A DNA stretch of 22,420 nucleotides, from IMG/VR virus record IMGVR_UViG_3300009974_000001; one strand, given 5' to 3'. A model generated the notes under the pieces. The model worked only from the letters and a program-made list of their open reading frames with translations. It was not told where the DNA came from and searched no databases. The translations under genes were made by a program, and so were the position numbers. Shown one piece after another: positions 2,467 through 22,420 of this stretch. Position 1 is the first letter of the stretch. Each line of letters begins with the position of its first letter. This DNA is from a virus.

Positions 2467-3334
2467 GGCTAATTCCACACCTACTCTTTTCCTGTATGAT
2501 GAAATCGGTGGATTCGGAATCAGCGCATCTGATTTCATGACTGATCTTATGGCCGTGGAAGGCGACGCCATTGATGTACATATCTCCTCTCTTGGTGGAG
2601 AAGTATTCCAGGGCTTCGCTATCTATCAGGCATTGAAGGATCACCCTGCTATGGTGAACGTCTATGTGGATTCCATTGCGGCCTCTATTGCTTCTGTCAT
2701 TGCTATGGCAGGCGACAAGGTAGTCATGGGCAAGAATTCACAGATGATGATTCATGATGGTCATGTGACGATGCAGGGCAATGCTGCGGATCTTACCCGT
2801 ATGATCGACCAGTTGAACCGTGCCTCTGACAATATCGCCTCTGTCTATGCAGAGCGTACTGGTGGAGACATCGCTGAATGGCGTAATGCCATGAAGGACG
2901 AGACATGGTTCAATGCTGAGGAAGCTGTTGCTGCTGGTCTTGCTGACGAGGTTTCTCAGTCATCCAAGAAGGTACGCAATGTGGCTGATCTACAGATCTT
3001 CAACTATGCAGGTCGTCAGTTCGCTCCTGCTCCTACTATTCTGGGGCAGAAGAGTACTGAGAAGAAGGAACCATATGGAGATGTGGAATACGCAGATCCT
3101 GGTTACCAGAACGACGGTAAGAAGAGATACCCGATTGACACCGAAGAGCACATTCGTGCCGCTTGGAGTTACATCAATCAATCAGATAATGCTAAACTGT
3201 ATACAGCAGAACAACTTAGCAATATCAAAAGCCGTATCAAGACAGCGGCTAAGAAGTTCGGGATTCAGATCTCGGACGCTATCGACACTGAATCCCTAAT
3301 CAAGGCTATTAAGGAAGGACTAAGTCATGGCTAA
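2438..3334 (+). CDS. ClpP-like (S14) prohead maturation protease with an extra conserved C-terminal domain
   Basis: ClpP-type serine context DSIAASIASVIAMAGD and histidine context QMMIHDG. SD ggagaggag precedes ATG 2438. The C-terminus carries YADPGYQNDGKKRYPIDTEEHIRAAWSYI. Confidence 0.85.
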   Translation: MKTWYRLENKANSTPTLFLYDEIGGFGISASDFMTDLMAVEGDAIDVHISSLGGEVFQGFAIYQALKDHPAMVNVYVDSIAASIASVIAMAGDKVVMGKNSQMMIHDGHVTMQGNAADLTRMIDQLNRASDNIASVYAERTGGDIAEWRNAMKDETWFNAEEAVAAGLADEVSQSSKKVRNVADLQIFNYAGRQFAPAPTILGQKSTEKKEPYGDVEYADPGYQNDGKKRYPIDTEEHIRAAWSYINQSDNAKLYTAEQLSNIKSRIKTAAKKFGIQISDAIDTESLIKAIKEGLSHG

Positions 3335-11012: not shown

Positions 11013-12551
11013 ATGGCCAGTACGGTAACTGTACATATTCATGCCGCAGCATCTGGTGTAGCCTCTGCTCTATCCAGCCTGAGATCTTCCATCGGTTCAG
11101 CAGCGAGCAGTATGATCTCTTCTCTGGGTTCTGCTATGTCATCTGCTGGTAGTTCCATTGCAGGTGGTTTGCAGACTGCATTGACTGGTGCTGGCTCCAA
11201 TCCTTATGTGCTTGCTGGTGTGGCAGCTCTTGTAGCTACGCTTGCTCCTGTTATCGGTACGCTTCTTGGTGGAGCTATTGTTCTAGGTGTCGGTGGAGCA
11301 CTTGCTGGTGTGGGAATCATGGCTGCTGCCAAGGCAAAGCAGGTACAGGATGCCTTCGGCAAGATGAAGGACACCATTGGTAAGACACTGACAGAAGCTG
11401 CCAAGCCTCTGGAACCAGTACTGGTTCACGTAGCTCAGAGTATTGAGTCTCTGGCAAAGGATGCCGGTCCTATGCTGAAGGAGATCTTCACTGGGATGGC
11501 TCCTGCATTGCAGTCGTTCTTCGATGCTGTGATGCGTGGATTCAGGGCTTTCGCTCCTGCATTGAAGCCTTTGTCTGAAGCGTTCAACATGATCATTACG
11601 GCTTTGGGACCTGTGTTTGAAGAGTTGCTGAGAGATCTTGGTGACGCGCTTGGTGACCTGGGAGAGACCTTCCAGAATAAGGATGTCATCGAGAGCTTCG
11701 TTGGTATCATCAATATGTTCTTCGAGATTCTTCCACTGGGTATTGACCTGATCAATATTCTGGCACAGTCAATGGCTGGCTGGAAGATCATGATCGAGAT
11801 TGTCATTGAGTGGATTCAGCAGCTTATCCAGTGGGTTGGCAAGATTGTCGGCAAGACAGTCAACTTCGCCCAAAAGGGTGCTTCCGCAGTCATTGGCTGG
11901 GTAAAGAGCATCATCGACTGGGTAAGAAACATCAAGAACAAGACCGTTGGATTCTTCCAGAAGGGTGCTTCTACGGTTATCGGATGGGTAAAGTCAGCCA
12001 TTGACTGGATTCGCAACCTCAAGGGCAAGACAGTATCCATCCTTCAGAAGGGTGCCGCAGGCGTTGTAAGCGCCGTAGGCGGGGCTATCAGTAAGATCCG
12101 CAACTTCGTAGGCAAGACTGTCTCTATCGGCGTCAAAGGCGCGGCAGCAGCTATCAAGGCTGTCCAAGGCGTTATTAACCGTATCAAGAACTTCGTGGGT
12201 AAGACAGTATCCATCGGAGTCAACTTCTTCAAGGGTGCTGGTTCCAAGTTGGCTTCTGCTCTTGGGTTCGCTCATGGTGGATATGTAGGAGCCGCACAAA
12301 GTGGTGGTCCAAGAGGTAATCAGGTCATTGTAGGCGAACGAGGACCAGAGCTTGTAGACCTCGCTCCTGGTTCACGAGTACGAAGCAATGACTCCACACG
12401 TACGATCCTTGCACAGGGTGGAGTAAGATCTACACCTATGCACATCACACTTCAGATCGGAGAGCAGAAGCTCGGTGAGCTATTGATTGATCCATTGAAG
12501 GGTGCCGTTCGTAAGCGTGGCGGAATTGTACAGGTCGTACTAGGACAGTAA
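11013..12551 (+). CDS. Tape measure protein (512 aa)
   Basis: It follows the G/GT pair. The N-terminus is Ala/Gly/Ser-rich and hydrophobic, there are internal 29-aa repeats, and the C-terminus has VIVGERGPELVDLAPGSRV. Confidence 0.85.
   Translation: MASTVTVHIHAAASGVASALSSLRSSIGSAASSMISSLGSAMSSAGSSIAGGLQTALTGAGSNPYVLAGVAALVATLAPVIGTLLGGAIVLGVGGALAGVGIMAAAKAKQVQDAFGKMKDTIGKTLTEAAKPLEPVLVHVAQSIESLAKDAGPMLKEIFTGMAPALQSFFDAVMRGFRAFAPALKPLSEAFNMIITALGPVFEELLRDLGDALGDLGETFQNKDVIESFVGIINMFFEILPLGIDLINILAQSMAGWKIMIEIVIEWIQQLIQWVGKIVGKTVNFAQKGASAVIGWVKSIIDWVRNIKNKTVGFFQKGASTVIGWVKSAIDWIRNLKGKTVSILQKGAAGVVSAVGGAISKIRNFVGKTVSIGVKGAAAAIKAVQGVINRIKNFVGKTVSIGVNFFKGAGSKLASALGFAHGGYVGAAQSGGPRGNQVIVGERGPELVDLAPGSRVRSNDSTRTILAQGGVRSTPMHITLQIGEQKLGELLIDPLKGAVRKRGGIVQVVLGQ
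11853..12260 (+). repeat. In-frame 87-bp (29-aa) tandem repeat array, about 4.7 copies, inside the tape measure gene
   Basis: Copies start at 11853, 11940, 12027, 12114 and 12201, each with aagac(a/c/t)gt. The peptide consensus is KTVxxxxKGAxxxIxxVxxxIxxIRNxxG. Confidence 0.9.
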
Positions 12552-12637: not shown

Positions 12638-15600
12638 ATGGTAGCAGTCGTGGCAAGTTCCGTAGCCACAAGCACAAACAACACAGACGCCACATCCGTA
12701 ACAGTAACAAAGCCAGCAGGTACAGCATCTGGCCACCTCATGATTGCTGTTACACATGGGTACACCGCAGATACTTTTACACCACCTACAGGATGGACAT
12801 TCCTGGAGCTGGAAGACGACGCCACTAATCTGCGTTCCAGAGCGTATATGAAGGTTGCGGGTTCATCAGAGCCTGCCAACTACACCTTTACCTTCCAGCC
12901 AGGCCCTGGCGGAGGGACCATTGGCGCATCCATTGTCACTTTCTCAGGACATGGAGGACTGGATTCCTACAACGTATTCGCTCCTGGAACATCTGACCCT
13001 GATGACAGCACCATCTTTCCTTTGGCACCTACCCGTGATGGAATCGGATATGCCGTTTACACATGGAGAGACACTACCTCTGACACAGTAACGTGGACAG
13101 GGGCAACTGAGTTGTTCGATGCGACTGCTGGAGACGCTGGTCTTACTCAGTACAGAGGGCAGTCAGGAGCATGGGAAACCTCTACAGCGGGTACTACAGC
13201 CTCCTGGTCAGTAAACCCGACCAACTCCATTACTCACGCTGTCAGATGGCAGTTCTTCATTGCTGACGCTGTGCCTGCCAATGAATCCTGGGCTTCCACG
13301 GGTACCGCTGTGGAGCTTGAAATCAATGGCACATGGACAGATGTGACAGATGACGTACGTTACGAGAACGGTATCTCCATTACCAGGGGAACCTCTTCCC
13401 AAGGAGGACAGGTCAATCCTTCCACTGCGGTACTGACCTTCAGCAATGCGGATGGAAAGTACTCTGTGCTGAATCCTACGAGTGAGTTCTATCCTTATCT
13501 GAATCTTACTGTGCCATGCCGTATCAGTAAGGCATATGGAACTGTGGCCGCTGAGTTCCTGGGATTCTACGACGTAGTAGCCGATCCTGCAAAGGGAGTA
13601 GACCGTTTCCGTACTCCTAGCACAGACAGCCTCAACATCACTGGAGACATTGATATCCGTGTGGATGTAGAACCAGAGACATGGAAGATGACTCAGGTAC
13701 TTGCCGCAAAGCACGGAGTACTCAACTTCGCCGGACCTGGAAGTACAGTATCAGGATGGGTGTTCTATCTGGATTCCATCGGTACTCCCAACCTTCTATG
13801 GGTGGACAGCTCTGGTGCCACAACTCTGAATGCCGCTGCAACGGCCTGTGTGGGCACAGAAATGCGTCAGGCTCTCCGTGTAACCCTGGACGTCAATAAC
13901 GGCTCCAGCGGCCACACAGTGACTTTCTACACGTCTTCTACGCTTGACGGTAGCTGGACTCAGCTAGGCAGTGCTGTAGTGGTGTCAGGTACAACGTCCA
14001 TCAACGCAAACACAATGGCTCTCACTGTGGGAGCTGTAGAACCGCTGATTGACGGAACAGATTTCACCTACTACAACAACAACGTTCCGCTGCCTCTGAC
14101 CAACACGGTACTGGACGCTGTACAGTCATTCACTCCTCCAGTGTTCAGACCTTTCCGTGGACGTATCTACGGTATGGAACTGAAGAGTGGTATTGCTGGT
14201 ACGACTGTGGCAAAGCCTACATTCGATACTCAGACCACTGGTACCAAGTCTCTTACAGACGCACAGGGCAACCTGTGGACTGCATATGGTTACGTAGTAT
14301 GTCACAACCGTAAGTACCGTCACCACGGAGAGATTACAGTATGGCCTCAGCCTCGTGATATCACAGGATCTGACGCATGGGTAGAAGTGGAGTCCACAGG
14401 AGTTCTCAACAGAGAGCAGCAGGGAACACCAGAAGAGAAGTCAGCCCTGTACAAGAGCTACACCAGTCCGTCCGGGAGCACAGATCTTCTGCCTGACGCA
14501 TACGGTAACTATGCTCTGCGTGGTCCTTACTATCCGGTGGCTTACTGGCCTATGGAAGACAATGCTCTTCCTGGTGCCGACACAGATGCTCCTGCTCAGG
14601 AACTGTCATGGTCTGCTATCGTACGTAACTTCCGTACTGGCAGAACACAGGAACCACAACCTGGTACTGTTACTGGAACAGTGGAGTTCGGTTCTGACAA
14701 TACGTTCTTCGCGTCCAAGTCAGCAGCCAAGTTCACTACAGGATCTATGATTCGTTTCCCTGTGCTCAATGCTGAGTCTGGAGCATGGCTGGCAGAGTTC
14801 ATCATCTATGCCCCAGATGGAATTACCAACGGTTCACGTATCGCAGAGGTGCGCCAGACTGGTGCAGACCGTATTGTTCGTCTGACTTACTCTGCTACGG
14901 ATACTCTTGTCCTTACGGTTCATGACGCTTCAGGTACTCAGATTGCTACATCAGGTTCTATGTCCGCAGCTATTAACCGTCGTCACAACAGACTGAGTAT
15001 CTTTGCTGATGGTGTGGGTGGCTACAATCTGCTGTACGAGAACCAGTCTGACCGTGTAGCTACCAGCCTGGGAAGTGCTATTGGTACTACTACGGGACGT
15101 ATCTACGAAGTAAGACTCAATGCCAATCAGACTATGAATGGTGTGTACCTGGCGCATCTTGCGGTATTTGATGGGGAAGATGCAACTACATATCCTTATG
15201 GTTCAGGTAAGATCTCTTCTCTTTCTCAGGCTTCTGATCTTGACGCATGGAGAAGAGAACCAGCCGCAAGAAGAGCAGAACGTCTTACCTGGGAACAGGA
15301 GCTGATCAACTACAACATCGGTGATGGTGGACCTTGGATGGGTCAGCAGACCACTAATAGTTACGTATCGTCCATGCAGGAAGTACAGGCTGTGGATATG
15401 GGTTACTTGTATGAGCCTCGCCAGGTTCTTGGACTTGGTTACCGTACTCGTACATCCATGTACAATCCTCCTCCTGTCCTTGAGCTGAGCTATGAGAGCA
15501 ATGATCTCTCTGGTACGTTCTCTCCTGTCAGAGATAACCGTGGATCTGTCAATGACATTACTGTGGAGAAGGAATTCGGAGCAAAAGGCCGCTATGAACT

Positions 15601-16906
15601 GACAGAAGGAAAGCGTTCTACGCAGCGTCCTCCCAACGGAATCGGGCGTTACAGAGACGAGAAGACCATCTCGCTCTACCGCGATAGAGATCTTCCTGGG
15701 CAGGCTCAATGGAGAGTCTTCGTAGGTACACGAGATGACTTGCGTGTGGACACTATTACCATTGCTCTGGAGAATCCGCGTATTGGTGGAGTGGCAGACA
15801 ACATCTACCGCTTCTACACTGCGGATATCGGTGACCGTATCGTACTGAGTGACTTGCCTCTGCTGCTGAATCCGGATGACATGGAGCTTACTATCGTAGG
15901 TTACAACGAGTTCTTCGATCAGTTCCAGCACAGCATCACATTCAACTGTGCGCCTGGTTCTGCTTTTGCGGTGGCTCAGACTGTGGCAACGTCCACAACT
16001 ACCTCCTCAAAGGCTTCCAGTGGGTCTACAACGACCTCTGAGGCCCTGGACACTACAGAGACTGCCATTGATGTTTCTGTGGCGTCAGGGAGCGCCCTGT
16101 GGTCTCAGACAGCCTCTGATTTCGATATCGTCATCGGAGGAGAGCGTATGACTGTGACGTCTCTGAGTTACGTATCAGATACATTCAGCCGTACCTCTGT
16201 GGATAGCTGGGGTTCTGCTGACACCGGACAGTCCTGGACCAATACCGGAGGAGCAGCGTCTGAGTACGATGTGGGCTCTGGCGTAGGTACGCACAACCAC
16301 ACAAGCGTCAATGTATCTCGTCAGTCCACAGTGGCGACTCCTTACAACAATGCCAATTTCGACGTTACTGTTACAGTATCGACGGATAAGCTAGCTGTAG
16401 GAGGAAGTCAGTTCGTTTATGCGGTTGGAAGATGGCAGGACACCAACAACATGTACTATGCCCGTCTGGAGTTCGCTACTACTGCTGTGGTTACTCTTAC
16501 ACTGCGTAAGAGAGTTGCGGGAGTGGATGGTGTACTGGGCACATTCGTACTGGACGAGACACATGCAGCCGGTCGTCAGTTCAACATCCGTATCCAGGGA
16601 ATCGGAACATCCATCAAGGCAAGAGCGTGGAGAACCGGATATGCTGAGCCGGATTACTGGCAGACATCTGCTACAGATTCGGATATCACGGCGTCTGGTC
16701 AGGTAGGAGTCCGTGGAGTTCTTTCTTCTGCGGCTTCCAACACACCTGTCCTGATTTCATGGGACAACTTCAAGACGAATGCGTTGACCAACCAGACGTT
16801 CAATGTCACTCGTAGCGTCAATGGTGTGGTGAAGAGCCACGCCACTGGAGCTGACGTAACTTTGTTCAAGCCCGCTTATGCGGCACTAGGCGAAACAGCA
16901 TCTTAG
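12638..16906 (+). CDS. Giant tail-tip protein (1422 aa): extra N-terminal domain, Dit-like domain, two LamG/ConA-like insertions, Tal-like minor-tail region and a C-terminal binding-type domain
   Basis: SD aaggaga. The Dit-like segment is ELEINGTWTDVTDDVRYENGISITRGTSSQGG...LTFSNADGKYSVLNP. The LamG-like segment is ALRVTLDVNNGSSGHTVTFYTSSTLDGSWTQLG. The Tal-like segment is RVDTITIALENPRI...DRIVLSDLP. Domain names are from recall. Confidence 0.75.
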   Translation: MVAVVASSVATSTNNTDATSVTVTKPAGTASGHLMIAVTHGYTADTFTPPTGWTFLELEDDATNLRSRAYMKVAGSSEPANYTFTFQPGPGGGTIGASIVTFSGHGGLDSYNVFAPGTSDPDDSTIFPLAPTRDGIGYAVYTWRDTTSDTVTWTGATELFDATAGDAGLTQYRGQSGAWETSTAGTTASWSVNPTNSITHAVRWQFFIADAVPANESWASTGTAVELEINGTWTDVTDDVRYENGISITRGTSSQGGQVNPSTAVLTFSNADGKYSVLNPTSEFYPYLNLTVPCRISKAYGTVAAEFLGFYDVVADPAKGVDRFRTPSTDSLNITGDIDIRVDVEPETWKMTQVLAAKHGVLNFAGPGSTVSGWVFYLDSIGTPNLLWVDSSGATTLNAAATACVGTEMRQALRVTLDVNNGSSGHTVTFYTSSTLDGSWTQLGSAVVVSGTTSINANTMALTVGAVEPLIDGTDFTYYNNNVPLPLTNTVLDAVQSFTPPVFRPFRGRIYGMELKSGIAGTTVAKPTFDTQTTGTKSLTDAQGNLWTAYGYVVCHNRKYRHHGEITVWPQPRDITGSDAWVEVESTGVLNREQQGTPEEKSALYKSYTSPSGSTDLLPDAYGNYALRGPYYPVAYWPMEDNALPGADTDAPAQELSWSAIVRNFRTGRTQEPQPGTVTGTVEFGSDNTFFASKSAAKFTTGSMIRFPVLNAESGAWLAEFIIYAPDGITNGSRIAEVRQTGADRIVRLTYSATDTLVLTVHDASGTQIATSGSMSAAINRRHNRLSIFADGVGGYNLLYENQSDRVATSLGSAIGTTTGRIYEVRLNANQTMNGVYLAHLAVFDGEDATTYPYGSGKISSLSQASDLDAWRREPAARRAERLTWEQELINYNIGDGGPWMGQQTTNSYVSSMQEVQAVDMGYLYEPRQVLGLGYRTRTSMYNPPPVLELSYESNDLSGTFSPVRDNRGSVNDITVEKEFGAKGRYELTEGKRSTQRPPNGIGRYRDEKTISLYRDRDLPGQAQWRVFVGTRDDLRVDTITIALENPRIGGVADNIYRFYTADIGDRIVLSDLPLLLNPDDMELTIVGYNEFFDQFQHSITFNCAPGSAFAVAQTVATSTTTSSKASSGSTTTSEALDTTETAIDVSVASGSALWSQTASDFDIVIGGERMTVTSLSYVSDTFSRTSVDSWGSADTGQSWTNTGGAASEYDVGSGVGTHNHTSVNVSRQSTVATPYNNANFDVTVTVSTDKLAVGGSQFVYAVGRWQDTNNMYYARLEFATTAVVTLTLRKRVAGVDGVLGTFVLDETHAAGRQFNIRIQGIGTSIKARAWRTGYAEPDYWQTSATDSDITASGQVGVRGVLSSAASNTPVLISWDNFKTNALTNQTFNVTRSVNGVVKSHATGADVTLFKPAYAALGETAS

Positions 16907-16916
16907 GAGATCAACA

Positions 16917-17438
16917 ATGGCAGAATATTACCCACGATGGGAAGCAGGTCAGGACATTACGGCTGACCTCCTTAATGCAGGTCTTCCCAGAGTCATCAGA
17001 AAGACCGCTGACACGGTGAAGAACAACACCACTACCGTAGCCGCTGATCCAGAGCTTCAGATTTCTCTGGAAGCCAATGCGGTGTACGTATGGGAAGGGT
17101 GGCTGAAGTATGACGTACGTCCTACTTCTGACATTCAGATTGACTTCAGCGCGCCTTCTGGAGCGCTAGGAGAGTGGGCTGGTATGGGTGCAGGATCTGG
17201 AACTGGTGCATCTACCGCAGCAGGTTACTCCATCCGTACAGAGACCAACGACATCACCCAGCTCCGTACGTACTATGGAACCACGGCGTCCAATCCTATG
17301 GCGCTGTTCCTGTATGGGACTATCCGTATGGGTTCCACCAGTGGGACTTTCTCATTGGACTGGGCTCCAGCAAACGCTGTGGCAGAAGATACCACGGTAT
17401 ATACTGATAGCTGGTTGAAGTTCCAGCGAATCGCATAA
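16917..17438 (+). CDS. Minor tail protein-like (173 aa)
   Basis: SD aggaga. Position and the pattern ITADLLNAGLPRVIRKTADT...LEANAVYVWEGWLKYD resemble actinophage minor tail proteins (recall). Confidence 0.5.
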   Translation: MAEYYPRWEAGQDITADLLNAGLPRVIRKTADTVKNNTTTVAADPELQISLEANAVYVWEGWLKYDVRPTSDIQIDFSAPSGALGEWAGMGAGSGTGASTAAGYSIRTETNDITQLRTYYGTTASNPMALFLYGTIRMGSTSGTFSLDWAPANAVAEDTTVYTDSWLKFQRIA

Positions 17439-17448
17439 GGAGCATAAT

Positions 17449-17703
17449 ATGGCAATCGTAGTACCCTATAGGGAATCGATTCAATACGATGGAACCAATG
17501 GTTCCTACATCATCGGAACCTGGGTAACAGGCGCTACTGATTTCGTATCCGACAATGGCACAACGCTTACGTGGGAAAACGAAGAAAACGCCATTCGTAC
17601 AGTAAATGTAGGTGGCTGGGTAATCAAGCGTTCGGATACGGATGGAGATCCTGAACAGCTTACCAACGCGGAATACCTTGAGCGCTATGTAGAGCTACCG
17701 TAG
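17449..17703 (+). CDS. Hypothetical protein (84 aa), last gene of the tail block
   Basis: SD aaggag lies 6 nt upstream. A terminator follows. Confidence 0.55.
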   Translation: MAIVVPYRESIQYDGTNGSYIIGTWVTGATDFVSDNGTTLTWENEENAIRTVNVGGWVIKRSDTDGDPEQLTNAEYLERYVELP

Positions 17704-17706
17704 GCA

Positions 17707-17748
17707 ACGAAGGACCCCGATCTCCGTAGTGGGAAAGGGGTCCTTCGT
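17707..17748 (+). terminator. Hairpin terminator ending the tail operon
   Basis: acgaaggacccc (17707-17718) pairs with ggggtccttcgt (17737-17748), a 12-bp stem. Confidence 0.65.
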
Positions 17749-17807
17749 CTAATCTGAGACTTAGCGTATAATTTACATGTACTTGCCAATTAGACTGGAA
17801 GGAGTTG

Positions 17808-18023
17808 ATGATGGAAGCAATGGACGATCCTAAGCTCGTAGCATCATTGACCCGTATCGAAACAAAGCTAGATCACTTCAATCAAATCTACGCCACACAC
17901 CTTACTGAGCATGAGGATCATGAAATGCGAATCAGGCTCCTTGAGAAGAAGGTGTGGACTCTTCCCACGGCTGCTACACTACTGGCTATCCTGGCAATGG
18001 TTTTGCCATTCCTACTAGTGTAA
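17808..18023 (+). CDS. Holin-like protein with a single C-terminal TM helix (71 aa)
   Basis: SD ggaaggag. The soluble N-terminus HEDHEMRIRLLEKKVW is followed by TLPTAATLLAILAMVLPFLLV. It resembles small membrane proteins of actinophage lysis cassettes (recall). Confidence 0.55.
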   Translation: MMEAMDDPKLVASLTRIETKLDHFNQIYATHLTEHEDHEMRIRLLEKKVWTLPTAATLLAILAMVLPFLLV

Positions 18024-19338: not shown

Positions 19339-19415
19339 CTTATCTCCTTATTTTGCTTGGCAAAAGCTTGGTAGTTAGTTATCTTATGAGATAGGTTTCT
19401 CTCTGTGTTAATACT

Positions 19416-19444
19416 AGTATAGCAGAGGAGATAAGATGTGTCAA
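19416..19444 (-). promoter_or_regulatory. Near-consensus sigma70-type promoter for the RHH operon: TTGACA, 17 nt, TATACT, with TGC as an extended -10
   Basis: The reverse complement of 19416-19444 reads ttgacaCATCTTATCTCCTCTGCtatact. Confidence 0.7.
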
Positions 19445-19449
19445 GCGAA

Positions 19450-19476
19450 GAACCTCACTTAGAAGGTGTGAGGTTC
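19450..19476 (-). terminator. Terminator after the rep-like gene
   Basis: gaacctcac (19450-19458) pairs with gtgaggttc (19468-19476). The - strand RNA continues UUCGCUU. Confidence 0.6.
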
Positions 19477-19491
19477 GTCACATAAGATCTT

Positions 19492-20640
19492 CTAGTAAGC
19501 GTGTGCTTGTACACGTAGTGCTGAGTACTTGGCCAAACGCTCTGATGACTGCGGAGATAGAGTAGGTGTTGTAGATGAGTTGGTGGTCTCAGATTCTGTA
19601 GAAGGGGAGTCACCGTACTTGGCTTCCCAGACCTTCATATCCTGTCTCCACTTACCCATGGCCTTGTTGAACGCTACCTCTGCGTTGTGAACTCTTCTCT
19701 CATGAGCAAAGTCATCGTGGTAAGGGTTACGGTTAGGAACCTCGTAGACAGGCTTCTGAGGCTTCTCTGGTACTGTCTGGACCTTCGCCCCAGGTTCTGC
19801 GCCAGAGGCGCTTAGAGGGGCGTCTACGACCTTTACAGGCTCCTTCTTACGCGGAGCGGCAGCTCTGCGAGGAGCCAGGGGATGAGGAGTACGTGTAATG
19901 TCTTTCGTTGTTACTGTTTCGTTATCAACGTCTACGTTCTTCTCACCAGAGGAAATGGTAGAAGGAGCCGCGTTAGCGGTGACTTCGTCTACCAGAGGAG
20001 AAATACCAATCTCTTCAATAACTTCTCTCTTAGTATCACCAGAGGAAACTAGTTCCTTACCAGGGAAGACCAGAGGAGACTTAGTCTCTACCAAGGCTCC
20101 CCCCTGGTTTTCCCCTGGTGAACTACTCATAACGGACATTTCCTTATTATTAGGTGAAATATTTACTGAACTATCTACTGAACTATTAGACCCTTCTACA
20201 GCAGGGGGGTAGTACCCTTCTACAGCAGGGGGGTAGTACCCTTCTACAGCAGGGGGGTTAGCTTCTGATGCAGGGTACTCTAGAGGAGTTGGTGCTGTGA
20301 CCCCTTCTACAGCAGGGGGGTTAGAAGATCTGTACTTCTCGGTGTTGACTTCAGCCTGCGGGAGTGCCATGATGGCTTCTGGAACGAGGAAGTAGCTGTT
20401 TCGCTTTCCTGGATTCTTCTGGACAGTCACCAGCCCTGGCAGGTAGGTATCGACTCCCTTGAAGTTCTTGGCGTTCTTGATTCCTCTGGTCTGGCATAGT
20501 CTTGCCACACCTGGGAAAGCTTCGTTGGTCTCGATGTTGCTTCTCATGATCAGCTCCACGAGAAGGATCTTGTCCTTGGCATCGAGAGTACTGATGTTCA
20601 CGACATTGATCATGTCGAACTTATTGGGCTTGTTGCTCAT
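19492..20640 (-). CDS. Rep-like or replisome-organizer-like protein: N-terminal winged HTH, PPAVEG repeats and a long low-complexity region (382 aa)
   Basis: The N-terminus LDAKDKILLVELIMRSN...EAFPGVARLCQTRGIKNAKNF...LVTVQK resembles HTH domains of plasmid and phage initiators (recall). SD AAGGAAA present. Confidence 0.55.
   Translation of the reverse strand: MSNKPNKFDMINVVNISTLDAKDKILLVELIMRSNIETNEAFPGVARLCQTRGIKNAKNFKGVDTYLPGLVTVQKNPGKRNSYFLVPEAIMALPQAEVNTEKYRSSNPPAVEGVTAPTPLEYPASEANPPAVEGYYPPAVEGYYPPAVEGSNSSVDSSVNISPNNKEMSVMSSSPGENQGGALVETKSPLVFPGKELVSSGDTKREVIEEIGISPLVDEVTANAAPSTISSGEKNVDVDNETVTTKDITRTPHPLAPRRAAAPRKKEPVKVVDAPLSASGAEPGAKVQTVPEKPQKPVYEVPNRNPYHDDFAHERRVHNAEVAFNKAMGKWRQDMKVWEAKYGDSPSTESETTNSSTTPTLSPQSSERLAKYSALRVQAHAY
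20121..20190. other. AT-rich tract inside the rep-like gene (20 G/C in 70 nt by hand count), candidate DNA-unwinding element
   Basis: aactactcataacggacatttccttattattaggtgaaatatttactgaactatctactgaactattaga. It includes tactgaactat twice (20164-20174 and 20176-20186). Confidence 0.4.
20191..20321. repeat. Four copies of the 20-bp repeat cccttctacagcaggggggt (three in tandem at 24-bp period, one 44 bp further on), iteron-like
   Basis: Copies are at 20191-20210, 20215-20234, 20239-20258 and 20302-20321. They encode the (Y)YPPAVEG / NPPAVEG peptide repeats on the - strand. Confidence 0.9.
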
Positions 20641-20654: not shown

Positions 20655-20697
20655 ATAGTAGTGGTGAAGGCGGTCTTCCTGGCGGGGGCCGCTTTTT
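20655..20697 (+). ncRNA. Candidate countertranscript of about 43 nt, complementary to the wHTH-rep intercistronic leader
   Basis: The predicted TSS is about 7 nt after the hexamer (A at 20655). The hairpin spans 20667-20695, with core pairs 20670-20678 to 20684-20692. It includes G-U pairs that exist only in the + strand RNA, and its 3' arm runs into the T-run at 20693-20697. Confidence 0.4.
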
Positions 20698-20920: not shown

Positions 20921-20958
20921 GGTTATCTCCATTGGTAGTTTTTCTCGCTTACATTAAT

Positions 20959-20967
20959 AGTATAGCA
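20959..20967 (-). promoter_or_regulatory. Extended -10 TGCTATACT for the wHTH-rep operon
   Basis: The reverse complement of agtatagca is the same 9-mer as in the RHH promoter. It lies about 32 nt upstream of ATG 20920. Confidence 0.5.
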
Positions 20968-20991
20968 CAGACTACTATCGTAAGTTTTGAT

Positions 20992-21041
20992 AGTATAGAC
21001 TCTAATCCATGTGATGTTTGTCACATACAACAGACTATACT
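20992..21041. promoter_or_regulatory. Dyad-symmetric control region: back-to-back TATACT boxes flanking the palindrome atgtga-N6-tcacat
   Basis: agtatagact (20992-21001) and agactatact (21032-21041) form a 9/10 inverted repeat. The central palindrome arms are 21009-21014 and 21021-21026. Confidence 0.5.
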
Positions 21042-21113
21042 CATAGTCCTGTATACTGTACTCATAGCCAGGGGTCTCCTAGCTATCTGTGTTAGGCGCT
21101 TCGCGCCGTTAGG

Positions 21114-21157
21114 GAAAGCCTCTTAGTCACTTACCTCATTCCGACTAAGAGGCTTTT
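21114..21157. terminator. Strong hairpin with A-tract and T-tract flanks, between the control region and the packaging genes
   Basis: gaaagcctcttagtc (21114-21128) pairs with gactaagaggctttt (21143-21157), with a 14-nt loop. Confidence 0.6.
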
Positions 21158-21226
21158 CCATTACCACCATTCATCTTAGATAGTGTATACTGATACTAAC
21201 ACAGAAACCAAACCAAGGAGACTACA

Positions 21227-21346
21227 ATGGCTATCAAGAAGATCGACATTCTCATGGACCAGGCACTAAAGACCCCTGAAGGACGAAAGGTCATTGCTGA
21301 GAAGCTTAGAAAGGAATTGCGTAGAAATGGGACAAACGTCAGATAA
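21227..21346 (+). CDS. 39-aa basic microprotein, first ORF of the late operon
   Basis: SD aaggaga lies 6 nt upstream. Hand translation: MAIKKIDILMDQALKTPEGRKVIAEKLRKELRRNGTNVR. It overlaps the terS start by 20 nt. Confidence 0.45.
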   Translation: MAIKKIDILMDQALKTPEGRKVIAEKLRKELRRNGTNVR

Positions 21347-21960: not shown

Positions 21961-22420
21961 ATGGAATACGTACACCACTATCAGCCTTTTGGTAATGCGA
22001 TTGAACTGTTCTATTCCCGTGATCCTGAAGTCCTCTATGAGGGCGCAGCAGGAACGGGTAAGTCGAGAGCATGTATCGAGAAGCTACATCTGTTGGCCAT
22101 GAAGTATCCCAACGCACGTATCCTCATGGTACGTAAGACACTCGTATCGCTCTCTGGTTCTGGTATCCAGACCTATGAACAGCATGTGGCGAGGGAACAT
22201 CTGGCTACAGGAGAAGTACAGTTCTTCGGTGGGTCCACTAGGGAACCCGCGTCATACCGTTATAAGAATGGCAGCCGTATCGTTCTTGGTGGAATGGATA
22301 AAGCCCTCAAGGTAATGTCCACTGAATACGATGTCATCTATGTACAGGAAGCAACAGAGCTTACCGAGAATGACTGGGAGTCATTGACTACTCGTCTTCG
22401 TAATGGGCGTATTCCATATC
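21961..22420 (+). CDS. Large terminase subunit, N-terminal ATPase part (runs off the window end and continues at base 124 after overlap merging)
   Basis: Hand translation: MEYVHHYQPFGNAIELFYSRDPEVLYEGAAGTGKSRACIEK..., with Walker A GAAGTGKS. It is in phase with 18-962 through the overlap. Confidence 0.9.
   Translation, partial: MEYVHHYQPFGNAIELFYSRDPEVLYEGAAGTGKSRACIEKLHLLAMKYPNARILMVRKTLVSLSGSGIQTYEQHVAREHLATGEVQFFGGSTREPASYRYKNGSRIVLGGMDKALKVMSTEYDVIYVQEATELTENDWESLTTRLRNGRIPY
22298..22420. repeat. Terminal overlap copy 2, identical to 1-123
   Basis: Direct comparison of the two window ends. Confidence 0.95.

Follow-up and report, generated by a model that had tools for sequence, protein, structure and literature searches.

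Dyad-symmetric repeats inside the initiator-like gene of a 22.3-kb actinomycete phage as a candidate iteron-type replication origin

The viral sequence IMGVR_UViG_3300009974_000001 from IMG/VR, analyzed here over its full stretch of 22,420 nt (the window), carries on its minus strand a gene for a 382-amino acid (aa) protein, and inside this gene lie four copies of a short repeat next to a markedly AT-rich tract. We propose that the four repeats are probably the iterons of a replication origin of the theta type that is located within the gene for its initiator, with initiator binding, DNA melting, helicase recruitment, and origin firing being the steps that we infer from this arrangement. Because the first 123 nt of the window equal its last 123 nt (1-123 = 22298-22420), the window represents a closed circular assembly of 22,297 bp; the open reading frame (ORF) of the terminase large subunit reads across the junction, and we take the sequence as a complete circular (or circularly permuted) phage genome. 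Its G+C content is 49.3%, close to the 50% given by a first-pass annotation of the DNA, and the 382-aa gene is its sole replication-like gene.

The 20-mer CCCTTCTACAGCAGGGGGGT starts at positions 20191, 20215, 20239, and 20302, just as the first-pass annotation had placed it. The first three of these copies are phased at exactly 24 nt and form tandem units with 100% matches in Tandem Repeats Finder (TRF), so that the spacings, read along the gene, are 63, 24, and 24 nt. This spacing had been equated with about two helical turns; the 24 bp stand, and correspond to 2.3 turns rather than 2. The iterons cover gene nt 320-454 and encode aa 107-151, just past the winged helix and inside a 180-aa linker that is predicted to be disordered. 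Across homologous genes (loci are given as L numbers), the conserved unit is a 16-bp dyad, CCCTKC-N4-GMAGGG, with constant arms and a central N4 that differs from genome to genome and, in L011 and L006, also within the array. Searched with up to one mismatch, the degenerate dyad CCCTKCNNNNGMAGGG matches the window four times, at the four iterons, against an expectation of 0.15, and 0 of 100 shuffled sequences reach this number. The dyad is present in 11 homologous genes (three to five copies in most, at 21-24 nt spacing) and in three of four further loci, with the L022 homologue containing no iteron motif, and it is confined to the initiator gene both in the window and in the 12-21-kb loci that were scanned. 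The 63-nt distance between iteron 1 and the tandem array is kept in L010 and L011, is divided into 41 + 22 nt in L004, and amounts to 57 nt in L009. We also considered that the dyad might form an RNA hairpin. This reading was ruled out, as co-variation between K and M of the two arms is lacking (the window itself has CCCTGC...GAAGGG) and base pairing is therefore not the conserved property.

Directly adjoining the array, the interval 20121-20190 contains the 20 G/C in 70 nt that had been counted in the first pass, and it turns out to be the lowest-GC 70-nt segment of the entire de-duplicated genome (fraction of segments as low, 9e-5). By nearest-neighbor energy, it is also the least stable duplex genome-wide at both the 40- and the 70-nt scale, even though it codes for protein and the next in rank are intergenic. 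The tract features a 12-nt periodic repeat, TGAACTATTTAC, in 2.8 copies at 20155-20187 (TRF). In the seven homologous genes that were scanned, the lowest-GC 60-nt segment is located just past the iterons as well. Three features of a lambda-type embedded origin are present in the window gene: the iterons lie between the coding parts for the DNA-binding and C-terminal domains, they are dyad-symmetric, and the AT tract adjoins them.

On the minus strand, the repeats encode PPAVEG(Y/V/S), in agreement with the PPAVEG peptide of the first-pass annotation, which had named freely varying codons in homologues as an outcome that would refute an origin. The opposite was found, with codons frozen and amino acids varying. 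When repeats are defined by their peptide alone, as P[AS]x[AE]G, 42 are obtained from 14 homologous genes, and in these the Pro codon is CCT in 42 of 42 cases compared to a fraction of 0.47 elsewhere in the same genes (Fisher p = 7e-13), the Glu codon is GAA in 33 of 33 compared to 0.52 (p = 2e-9), and the Gly codon is GGG in 41 of 42 compared to 0.20 (p = 1.5e-22); these tests are inflated, as repeats within one genome are not independent, though 14 genes contribute. A second measure, the fraction of identical codons at identical residues in six codon-aligned genes, gives 0.56 for the winged helix, 0.90 for the iterons, 0.89 for the AT tract, 0.78 for the region of a second repeat family (R2, described below), 0.66 for the C-terminal helix, and 0.56 for the tail. 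For amino acids, the identity of 0.39 in the AT tract is below the winged-helix value of 0.62. These comparisons indicate that the repeats are constrained as DNA while their residues vary, and we consider it very likely that they are functional DNA sites. PPAVEG-type peptide repeats would then largely represent the translation of DNA sites, because the origin DNA occupies the linker-coding stretch.

Some homologues display the site in another orientation or frame. In L006 and L023, the coding strand reads CCCTTCTACAGCAGGGG, which is the window site reversed and yields PSTAG rather than PAVEG. In L004, a perfect extra dyad is found out of frame (encoding TPLHRKG) inside the otherwise conserved 63-nt spacer, whose length is unchanged, and this is seen in three contigs, which come from three samples. 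An iteron-like site in a different frame occurs in L009 at the gene position equivalent to 19596-19607, where the window gene holds a partial inverted copy (Table 1). In the independent contigs L023 (75-928) and L024 (2515-3314), the initiator gene is broken up into two ORFs, one for the winged helix and one for the linker, with the break exactly between iteron 1 and iteron 2 and with stop and start overlapping; this may reflect a genuine version with two genes, a programmed frameshift, or an error of assembly. These two loci were ruled out as further out-of-frame evidence, each iteron being in the usual frame of its own ORF. An antisense ORF at 19898-20212 was likewise ruled out, as open antisense stretches are not positionally conserved in the homologues.

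The window protein belongs, by profile searches, to a small and tight family. A search of 5.8 billion proteins returned 12 relatives, to which a profile of the N-terminal domain added 18, and when 1.84 billion cluster representatives were searched exhaustively by profile, only 73 clusters (at 50% identity) were obtained. The amino-acid identity of first-round members to the window protein is 33-69%; PF13730 (HTH_36) is matched by 9 of 13 of them (best E 1.5e-7), phrog_391 ("replication initiation O-like") by 5 of 13, and phrog_270 ("replication initiation protein") by 4 of 13. The first-pass label "rep-like" is thus borne out through homologues, and not by the window protein's own searches, which gave no match among INPHARED phages (tblastn) or PLSDB plasmids and no meaningful match among PDB sequences; nor does the segment 18000-22420 have a blastn match. 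An AlphaFold2 (AF2) model computed with the family alignment displays a confident winged helix at aa 1-100 (predicted local distance difference test, pLDDT, about 90), a linker without structure at aa ~105-285 that is predicted to be disordered (pLDDT below 50 for 112-282), a confident long helix at aa 290-342 (pLDDT about 90), and a less confident short helix at 363-380. Compared to the PDB by Foldseek, the model retrieves generic winged-helix folds only, at non-significant E-values of at least 0.08.

A hallmark of the family is the presence of PxxEG repeats directly after the winged-helix domain, followed by an N/S-rich segment: at least two such peptide motifs occur in 54 of 69 family proteins, and the total of 224 motifs compares to 4.6 in shuffled sequence. 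Some divergent members possess other repeats at the equivalent place, in keeping with a joint divergence of the sites and the binding domain. Part of the winged-helix profile (positions ~33-76) is also matched 7-20 times in each of the giant proteins P0042, P0072, P0074, P0077, and P0078 (889-2515 aa), through a stretch of the form RGIK..KNFKG..YLPGLV; a similar repeat thus exists in unrelated giant proteins. Homologues are further encoded in Streptomyces sp. and Nocardioides flavus genomes, another is located beside an Lsr2 gene, and some homologues adjoin integrases; the hosts are actinomycetes. In the related phage contigs, which span 16-22 kb, no other replication gene was seen. The L006 homologue, with its iterons, is found in a ~7-kb integrated element of Streptomyces antibioticus (JBEZXL010000003.1, 6282-13362), flanked by an integrase gene and a GntR gene. 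Obvious genes for transfer or structural functions were not observed in this element, and its initiator gene has a G+C content of only 53%. Streptomyces genomes are typically high in G+C, well above this value. The element may represent a satellite or a minimal integrative replicon.

A comparison with L010, a near-identical phage contig from another metagenome, localizes the differences between the two genomes. In the regulatory region, in the small winged-helix gene, and in all sequence leftward from about 19620, identity is 97-100%. It decreases to 58-78% across 20700-20150, which comprises the winged-helix coding part and the iterons, while parts of the distal AT tract and of the R2 region are again at 92-95%; a second divergent patch spans 19962-19795, and both divergent blocks are inside the initiator gene. 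On this alignment, the genome reads as a mosaic, and it is suggestive that a single divergent block unites the binding domain with its putative sites, as a specificity pair would predict.

Beyond the AT tract, the 9-mer TCCTCTGGT occurs in five exact copies in the window, all within 19945-20490, where ~0.2 would be expected in 22 kb by our estimate. These R2 repeats are translated in two frames, as SPLV and as SSGD/E, and they are conserved in L010, L009, L004, and the Streptomyces element L006, while being absent from L011 and from the short-protein clade. In place of R2, L011 has at gene nt 610-760 (locus ~3006-3156) two copies of the 23-mer GAACAGATAGAGCCTTCGGCTCC and three of AGCCTTCGGCT; this second set of repeats may be exchangeable. 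The first-pass annotation had described C-runs at 20099-20107 and 20112-20118 as inverted half-sites of the iteron. Both runs are present, but this assignment is not supported: the latter lies within an inverted R2 copy (20109-20121), which is common only to the closely related L010 and so gives no independent support, and the former overlaps AACCAGGGR, an element on the coding strand of five homologues in which DNA conservation is inseparable from the conserved NQG peptide. We also considered R2 as the binding sites of the 78-aa MarR-like protein encoded next to the initiator gene. This link is unsupported, as R2 occurs in L006/L007 without a homologue of that protein, and also in L004, whose MarR-like copy is only 29% identical.

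Table 1. Coordinates of the features in and around the 382-aa gene (window positions).
Feature	Position	Strand	Remarks
Initiator-like gene, 382 aa	19492-20640	-	ORF and translation; AF2 model; homologues match PF13730 and "replication initiation O-like" PHROGs
Winged-helix coding part (aa 1-100), presumed iteron-binding module	20341-20640	-	24 invariant residues across 12 homologues
Iteron 1, solitary	20301-20324		Dyad core 20302-20317 = CCCTTCTACAGCAGGG; 63 nt from next copy
Iterons 2-4, three tandem 24-nt units	20190-20261		Dyad cores 20191-20206, 20215-20230, 20239-20254
AT-rich tract, candidate DNA unwinding element	20121-20190		20/70 G+C (29%)
Inverted R2 copy TTTCCCCTGGTGA	20109-20121	+	12/13 match to TTTCCTCTGGTGA; edge of AT tract; contains cccctgg (20112-20118)
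C-run CCCCCCTGG	20099-20107	+	8-nt match to iteron end, inverted; possible half-site, not established
Second repeat family R2, consensus TYTCCTCTGGT	19943-20079	-	9-mer cores 19945-53, 19991-99, 20038-46, 20069-77, all exact
C-terminal helical coding part (aa 290-380), presumed contact to host replication machinery	19501-19773	-	AF2; conserved in long homologues
Partial inverted iteron copy CTGTAGAAGGGG, 11-12 nt	19596-19607	+	Near gene 3' end; marginal by chance
MarR-type winged-helix gene, 78 aa	20696-20932	-	PF12802, 1.3e-6; directly upstream of the 382-aa gene, syntenic in related phages
Divergent regulatory region (second-lowest GC, short repeats, hairpin)	20933-21226		Alternative candidate origin place; no iteron motif

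The arrangement resembles in its layout that of phage lambda, whose origin occupies the middle of gene O and consists of four iterons, which are imperfect inverted repeats, followed by an AT-rich tract (PMC7466680). In the lambda record, the iterons span gene nt 349-433 and follow one another at 20, 24, and 23 nt, so the parallel to lambda that had been drawn in the first pass holds at the level of layout, including the position of the AT tract immediately downstream in the direction of transcription. In both cases, the origin, or candidate origin, lies between the coding parts for an N-terminal DNA-binding domain and a C-terminal domain, the four iterons are each an imperfect inverted repeat of about 18-20 bp with 20-24 bp spacing, and they are read in whatever frame. 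Unlike in lambda, there is no detectable homology to O and no downstream P-like loader gene, the host is an actinomycete, a second repeat family follows the AT tract, and the three tandem iterons are exact 24-nt copies in one frame. The arms of the lambda iterons (TCCCTC...GAGGGA; L021 435-519) resemble those found here (CCCTTC...GAAGGG; 20191-20317), between proteins without detectable homology; this likeness is probably a coincidence or a convergence.

A second precedent is oriL of phage SPP1, which is embedded in gene 38, encoding the replisome organizer G38P, and comprises AB boxes together with an AT-rich DNA unwinding element (DUE); G38P is an initiator without an AAA+ domain, belongs to pfam09524, and works with the phage-encoded loader G39P and helicase G40P (PMC5737612). 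Common to both systems are the placement of the origin in the gene of the binding protein and the presence of two kinds of boxes with an adjoining AT-rich DUE, whereas the protein family differs and no analogue of G39P or G40P is found here. From the proteins grouped under PF13730 and the O-like PHROGs, the window protein differs in being itself below detection. Iteron plasmids (RepA/RepE/pi/TrfA) similarly have directly repeated sites beside an AT-rich unwinding element with short periodic repeats. Their initiators contain two winged-helix domains (WH1-WH2) and bind non-palindromic iterons as monomers, and their origins are outside the rep gene, usually with DnaA boxes. Here, by contrast, the AF2 model has one winged helix, the sites are dyad-symmetric, and DnaA boxes are not enriched; RepE-type structures appear only as weak Foldseek matches (E at least 0.56). 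In extrachromosomal mycobacteriophages of cluster A (Miko, Rachaly, Jeeves), RepA, a homologue of mycobacterial plasmid RepA proteins, is sufficient for autonomous replication, and an origin within or next to repA is suspected by the authors by analogy to lambda, no repeated motifs having been found by them (PMC7157519). The parallel between these actinobacteriophage-encoded initiators and the 382-aa family is drawn from their published description. Judged by sequence, the present case would work like lambda and SPP1, outside of their protein families. The arrangement as such has been classical since lambda and SPP1, decades ago, and involves no new principle; the novelty lies in the protein family, in the host group, in a replicon that apparently needs a single gene, and in a very clear case of a peptide repeat as the shadow of a palindromic DNA site.

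In the mechanism that we envisage, the 382-aa protein would be produced from the leftward operon, and its N-terminal winged helix would bind each 16-bp dyad, probably as a dimer, at 20302-20317 and at the three sites within 20191-20254. The resulting multi-site nucleoprotein complex could melt the adjoining 70-bp AT tract (20121-20190), the C-terminal helices may recruit the host helicase and replisome, and the R2 repeats beyond the AT tract may constitute a further cis element of the same origin. As in lambda, transcription of the gene would pass through the origin.

Several observations weigh against an origin at this place. GC skew is uninformative: the + strand is positive throughout, AT skew tracks gene orientation, and the switch that the first-pass annotation had proposed to look for at this locus is absent from the whole genome. 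DnaA boxes (TTRTCCACA, up to one mismatch) number 13 in comparison to 11.6 expected, with none within 1 kb of the iterons. Family matching against Pfam and PHROG detected no polymerase, helicase, loader, primase, or integrase among the proteins of the genome, and the genes downstream of the 382-aa gene (a 60-aa Arc/CopG-like gene and small ORFs without assignment) include no P-like helicase loader; lacking a loader gene or nearby DnaA boxes, the recruitment of a helicase is wholly conjectural. The 382-aa protein has no Pfam or PHROG match at E <= 0.1, no homology to any solved initiator (PDB sequences, Foldseek), and none detectable to lambda O (hhalign probability 0.3); its replication label is transitive, coming through homologues whose PHROG labels are themselves annotations. 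The codon statistics are inflated to the extent described above, and the constraint that they reveal fits an operator or another protein-binding array equally well. Finally, the iterons of the window and L010 differ at one position and in copy number, and the divergent block on its own does not prove a change in specificity.

The ambiguity of the codon evidence bears on the alternative that the repeats are only regulatory, serving as an autoregulatory operator or roadblock or as sites of the neighboring 78-aa MarR-type protein, with the origin placed elsewhere, for example at 20933-21226. Initiators often autoregulate, and the intergenic region includes short repeats and, at 20949-21018, the second-lowest-GC segment, which is the least stable of the genome at the 100-nt scale. 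However, this region has no iteron motif and resembles promoters and operators, the same module being repeated upstream of the Arc-like gene, and operators are not usually found 320-450 nt inside the regulated gene beside the least stable DNA of the genome. In addition, iterons, AT tract, and a single initiator-like gene are kept together in a non-phage integrated element with other neighbors, and R2 does not track the small winged-helix gene. Taken together, we regard a purely regulatory role as unlikely.

The array could also be a different kind of cis site, such as a plasmid-type centromere to which a TubR/AspA-like winged-helix adaptor binds, a recognition site for packaging, or an arm site for recombination; we assign only a slim chance to this. 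The resemblance to the centromere binders TubR and AspA in Foldseek is weak (E 0.3-1.2), these matches being generic winged helices with non-significant E-values, and although some homologues adjoin integrases, neither an integrase nor ParA, TubZ, or another motor gene was found in the genome or its 22-kb relative, and the terminase genes are far from the repeats. That the repeats are instead an ordinary coding tandem repeat that has recently expanded within a disordered linker, under protein-level selection if any, with the AT tract being no more than Ser/Asn-rich coding sequence, we hold to be very improbable. Predicted disorder, the identity of the three tandem copies, as after recent slippage, and the family-wide peptide motif would be accounted for in this way. 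Yet synonymous sites are frozen across genes of 33-69% amino-acid identity in which residues change, the site occurs reversed and out of frame, and the extra copy in L004 arose within a spacer of fixed length, not by the addition of 24 nt.

If the repeats are indeed the iterons of an embedded origin, a further and more tentative proposal can be made, which we think possible but doubtful: that the gene with its embedded sites is a complete one-gene replicon of actinomycetes, made up of a 200-380-aa protein with one winged helix that has no loader partner and recruits the host helicase directly. In such a replicon, the protein would open an origin encoded in its own disordered linker, the linker peptide (PxxEG, N/S-rich, SPLV/SSG) would essentially be a by-product of three layers of cis-acting DNA, namely the dyad iterons, the unwinding tract, and R2 repeats bound by a further factor, and the whole would be mobile as one module, passing among mini-phages of 16-22 kb and small integrated elements in Streptomyces and Nocardioides.

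The remainder of the genome is that of a tailed phage, for which 22,297 bp is unusually small. The structural genes on the + strand include, besides the terminase large subunit across the junction, a portal (PF04860), a ClpP-type protease, a major capsid protein whose closest described relative is that of Streptomyces phage Dagobah (54% amino-acid identity), a tape measure protein, and a 1422-aa tail protein. The tape-measure gene contains an 87-nt tandem repeat (11870-12055, 2.1 copies, 75% matches), and the 1422-aa tail-region protein (12638-16906, 16917-18023) matches phrog_5313, with its C-terminal part matching a PHROG annotated as "phosphodiesterase." No endolysin or holin family is recognizable in the genome, and no Rfam family or tRNA gene was found in the window. 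The leftward module consists of four genes, encoding the 78-aa MarR-type protein, the 382-aa protein, the 60-aa Arc/CopG-like protein (19338-19156), and a 116-aa protein of no assigned function. The MarR-type protein, which is 100% identical in L010, is probably a regulator of the replication module.

Several regulatory elements were observed around this module. A promoter/operator-like unit is present in two copies with 74% identity (19395-19500 and 20938-21043), situated upstream of the Arc-like gene and of the MarR-like/initiator operon, respectively, each with a TGTGA-N6-TCACA palindrome (19467-19482; 21010-21025). The best sigma-70-like promoter of the region runs from 19444 to 19416 on the minus strand. 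Within the divergent regulatory region, a hairpin with 17-nt arms (94% complementary) and a 14-nt loop is located at 21112-21159, upstream of a small + strand ORF at 21227. Another hairpin, rich in G+C and followed by a T-run, lies on the + strand at 20666-20696, between two minus-strand genes and facing against both, with no + strand gene upstream; it may terminate antisense or read-in transcription toward the origin.

If true, the embedded origin would provide a delimited and testable origin and initiator for 16-22-kb actinobacterial phages and related integrated elements that have no other replication function, and the self-contained module of ~1.2 kb could serve as a new replicon for Streptomyces vectors. 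It would also be an unusually clean example of a coding sequence that is dictated by cis-acting DNA and not by the protein, reading PAVEG or PSTAG depending on the orientation of the site, and as such would aid thinking on overlapping constraints and on false annotations of a "protein repeat."

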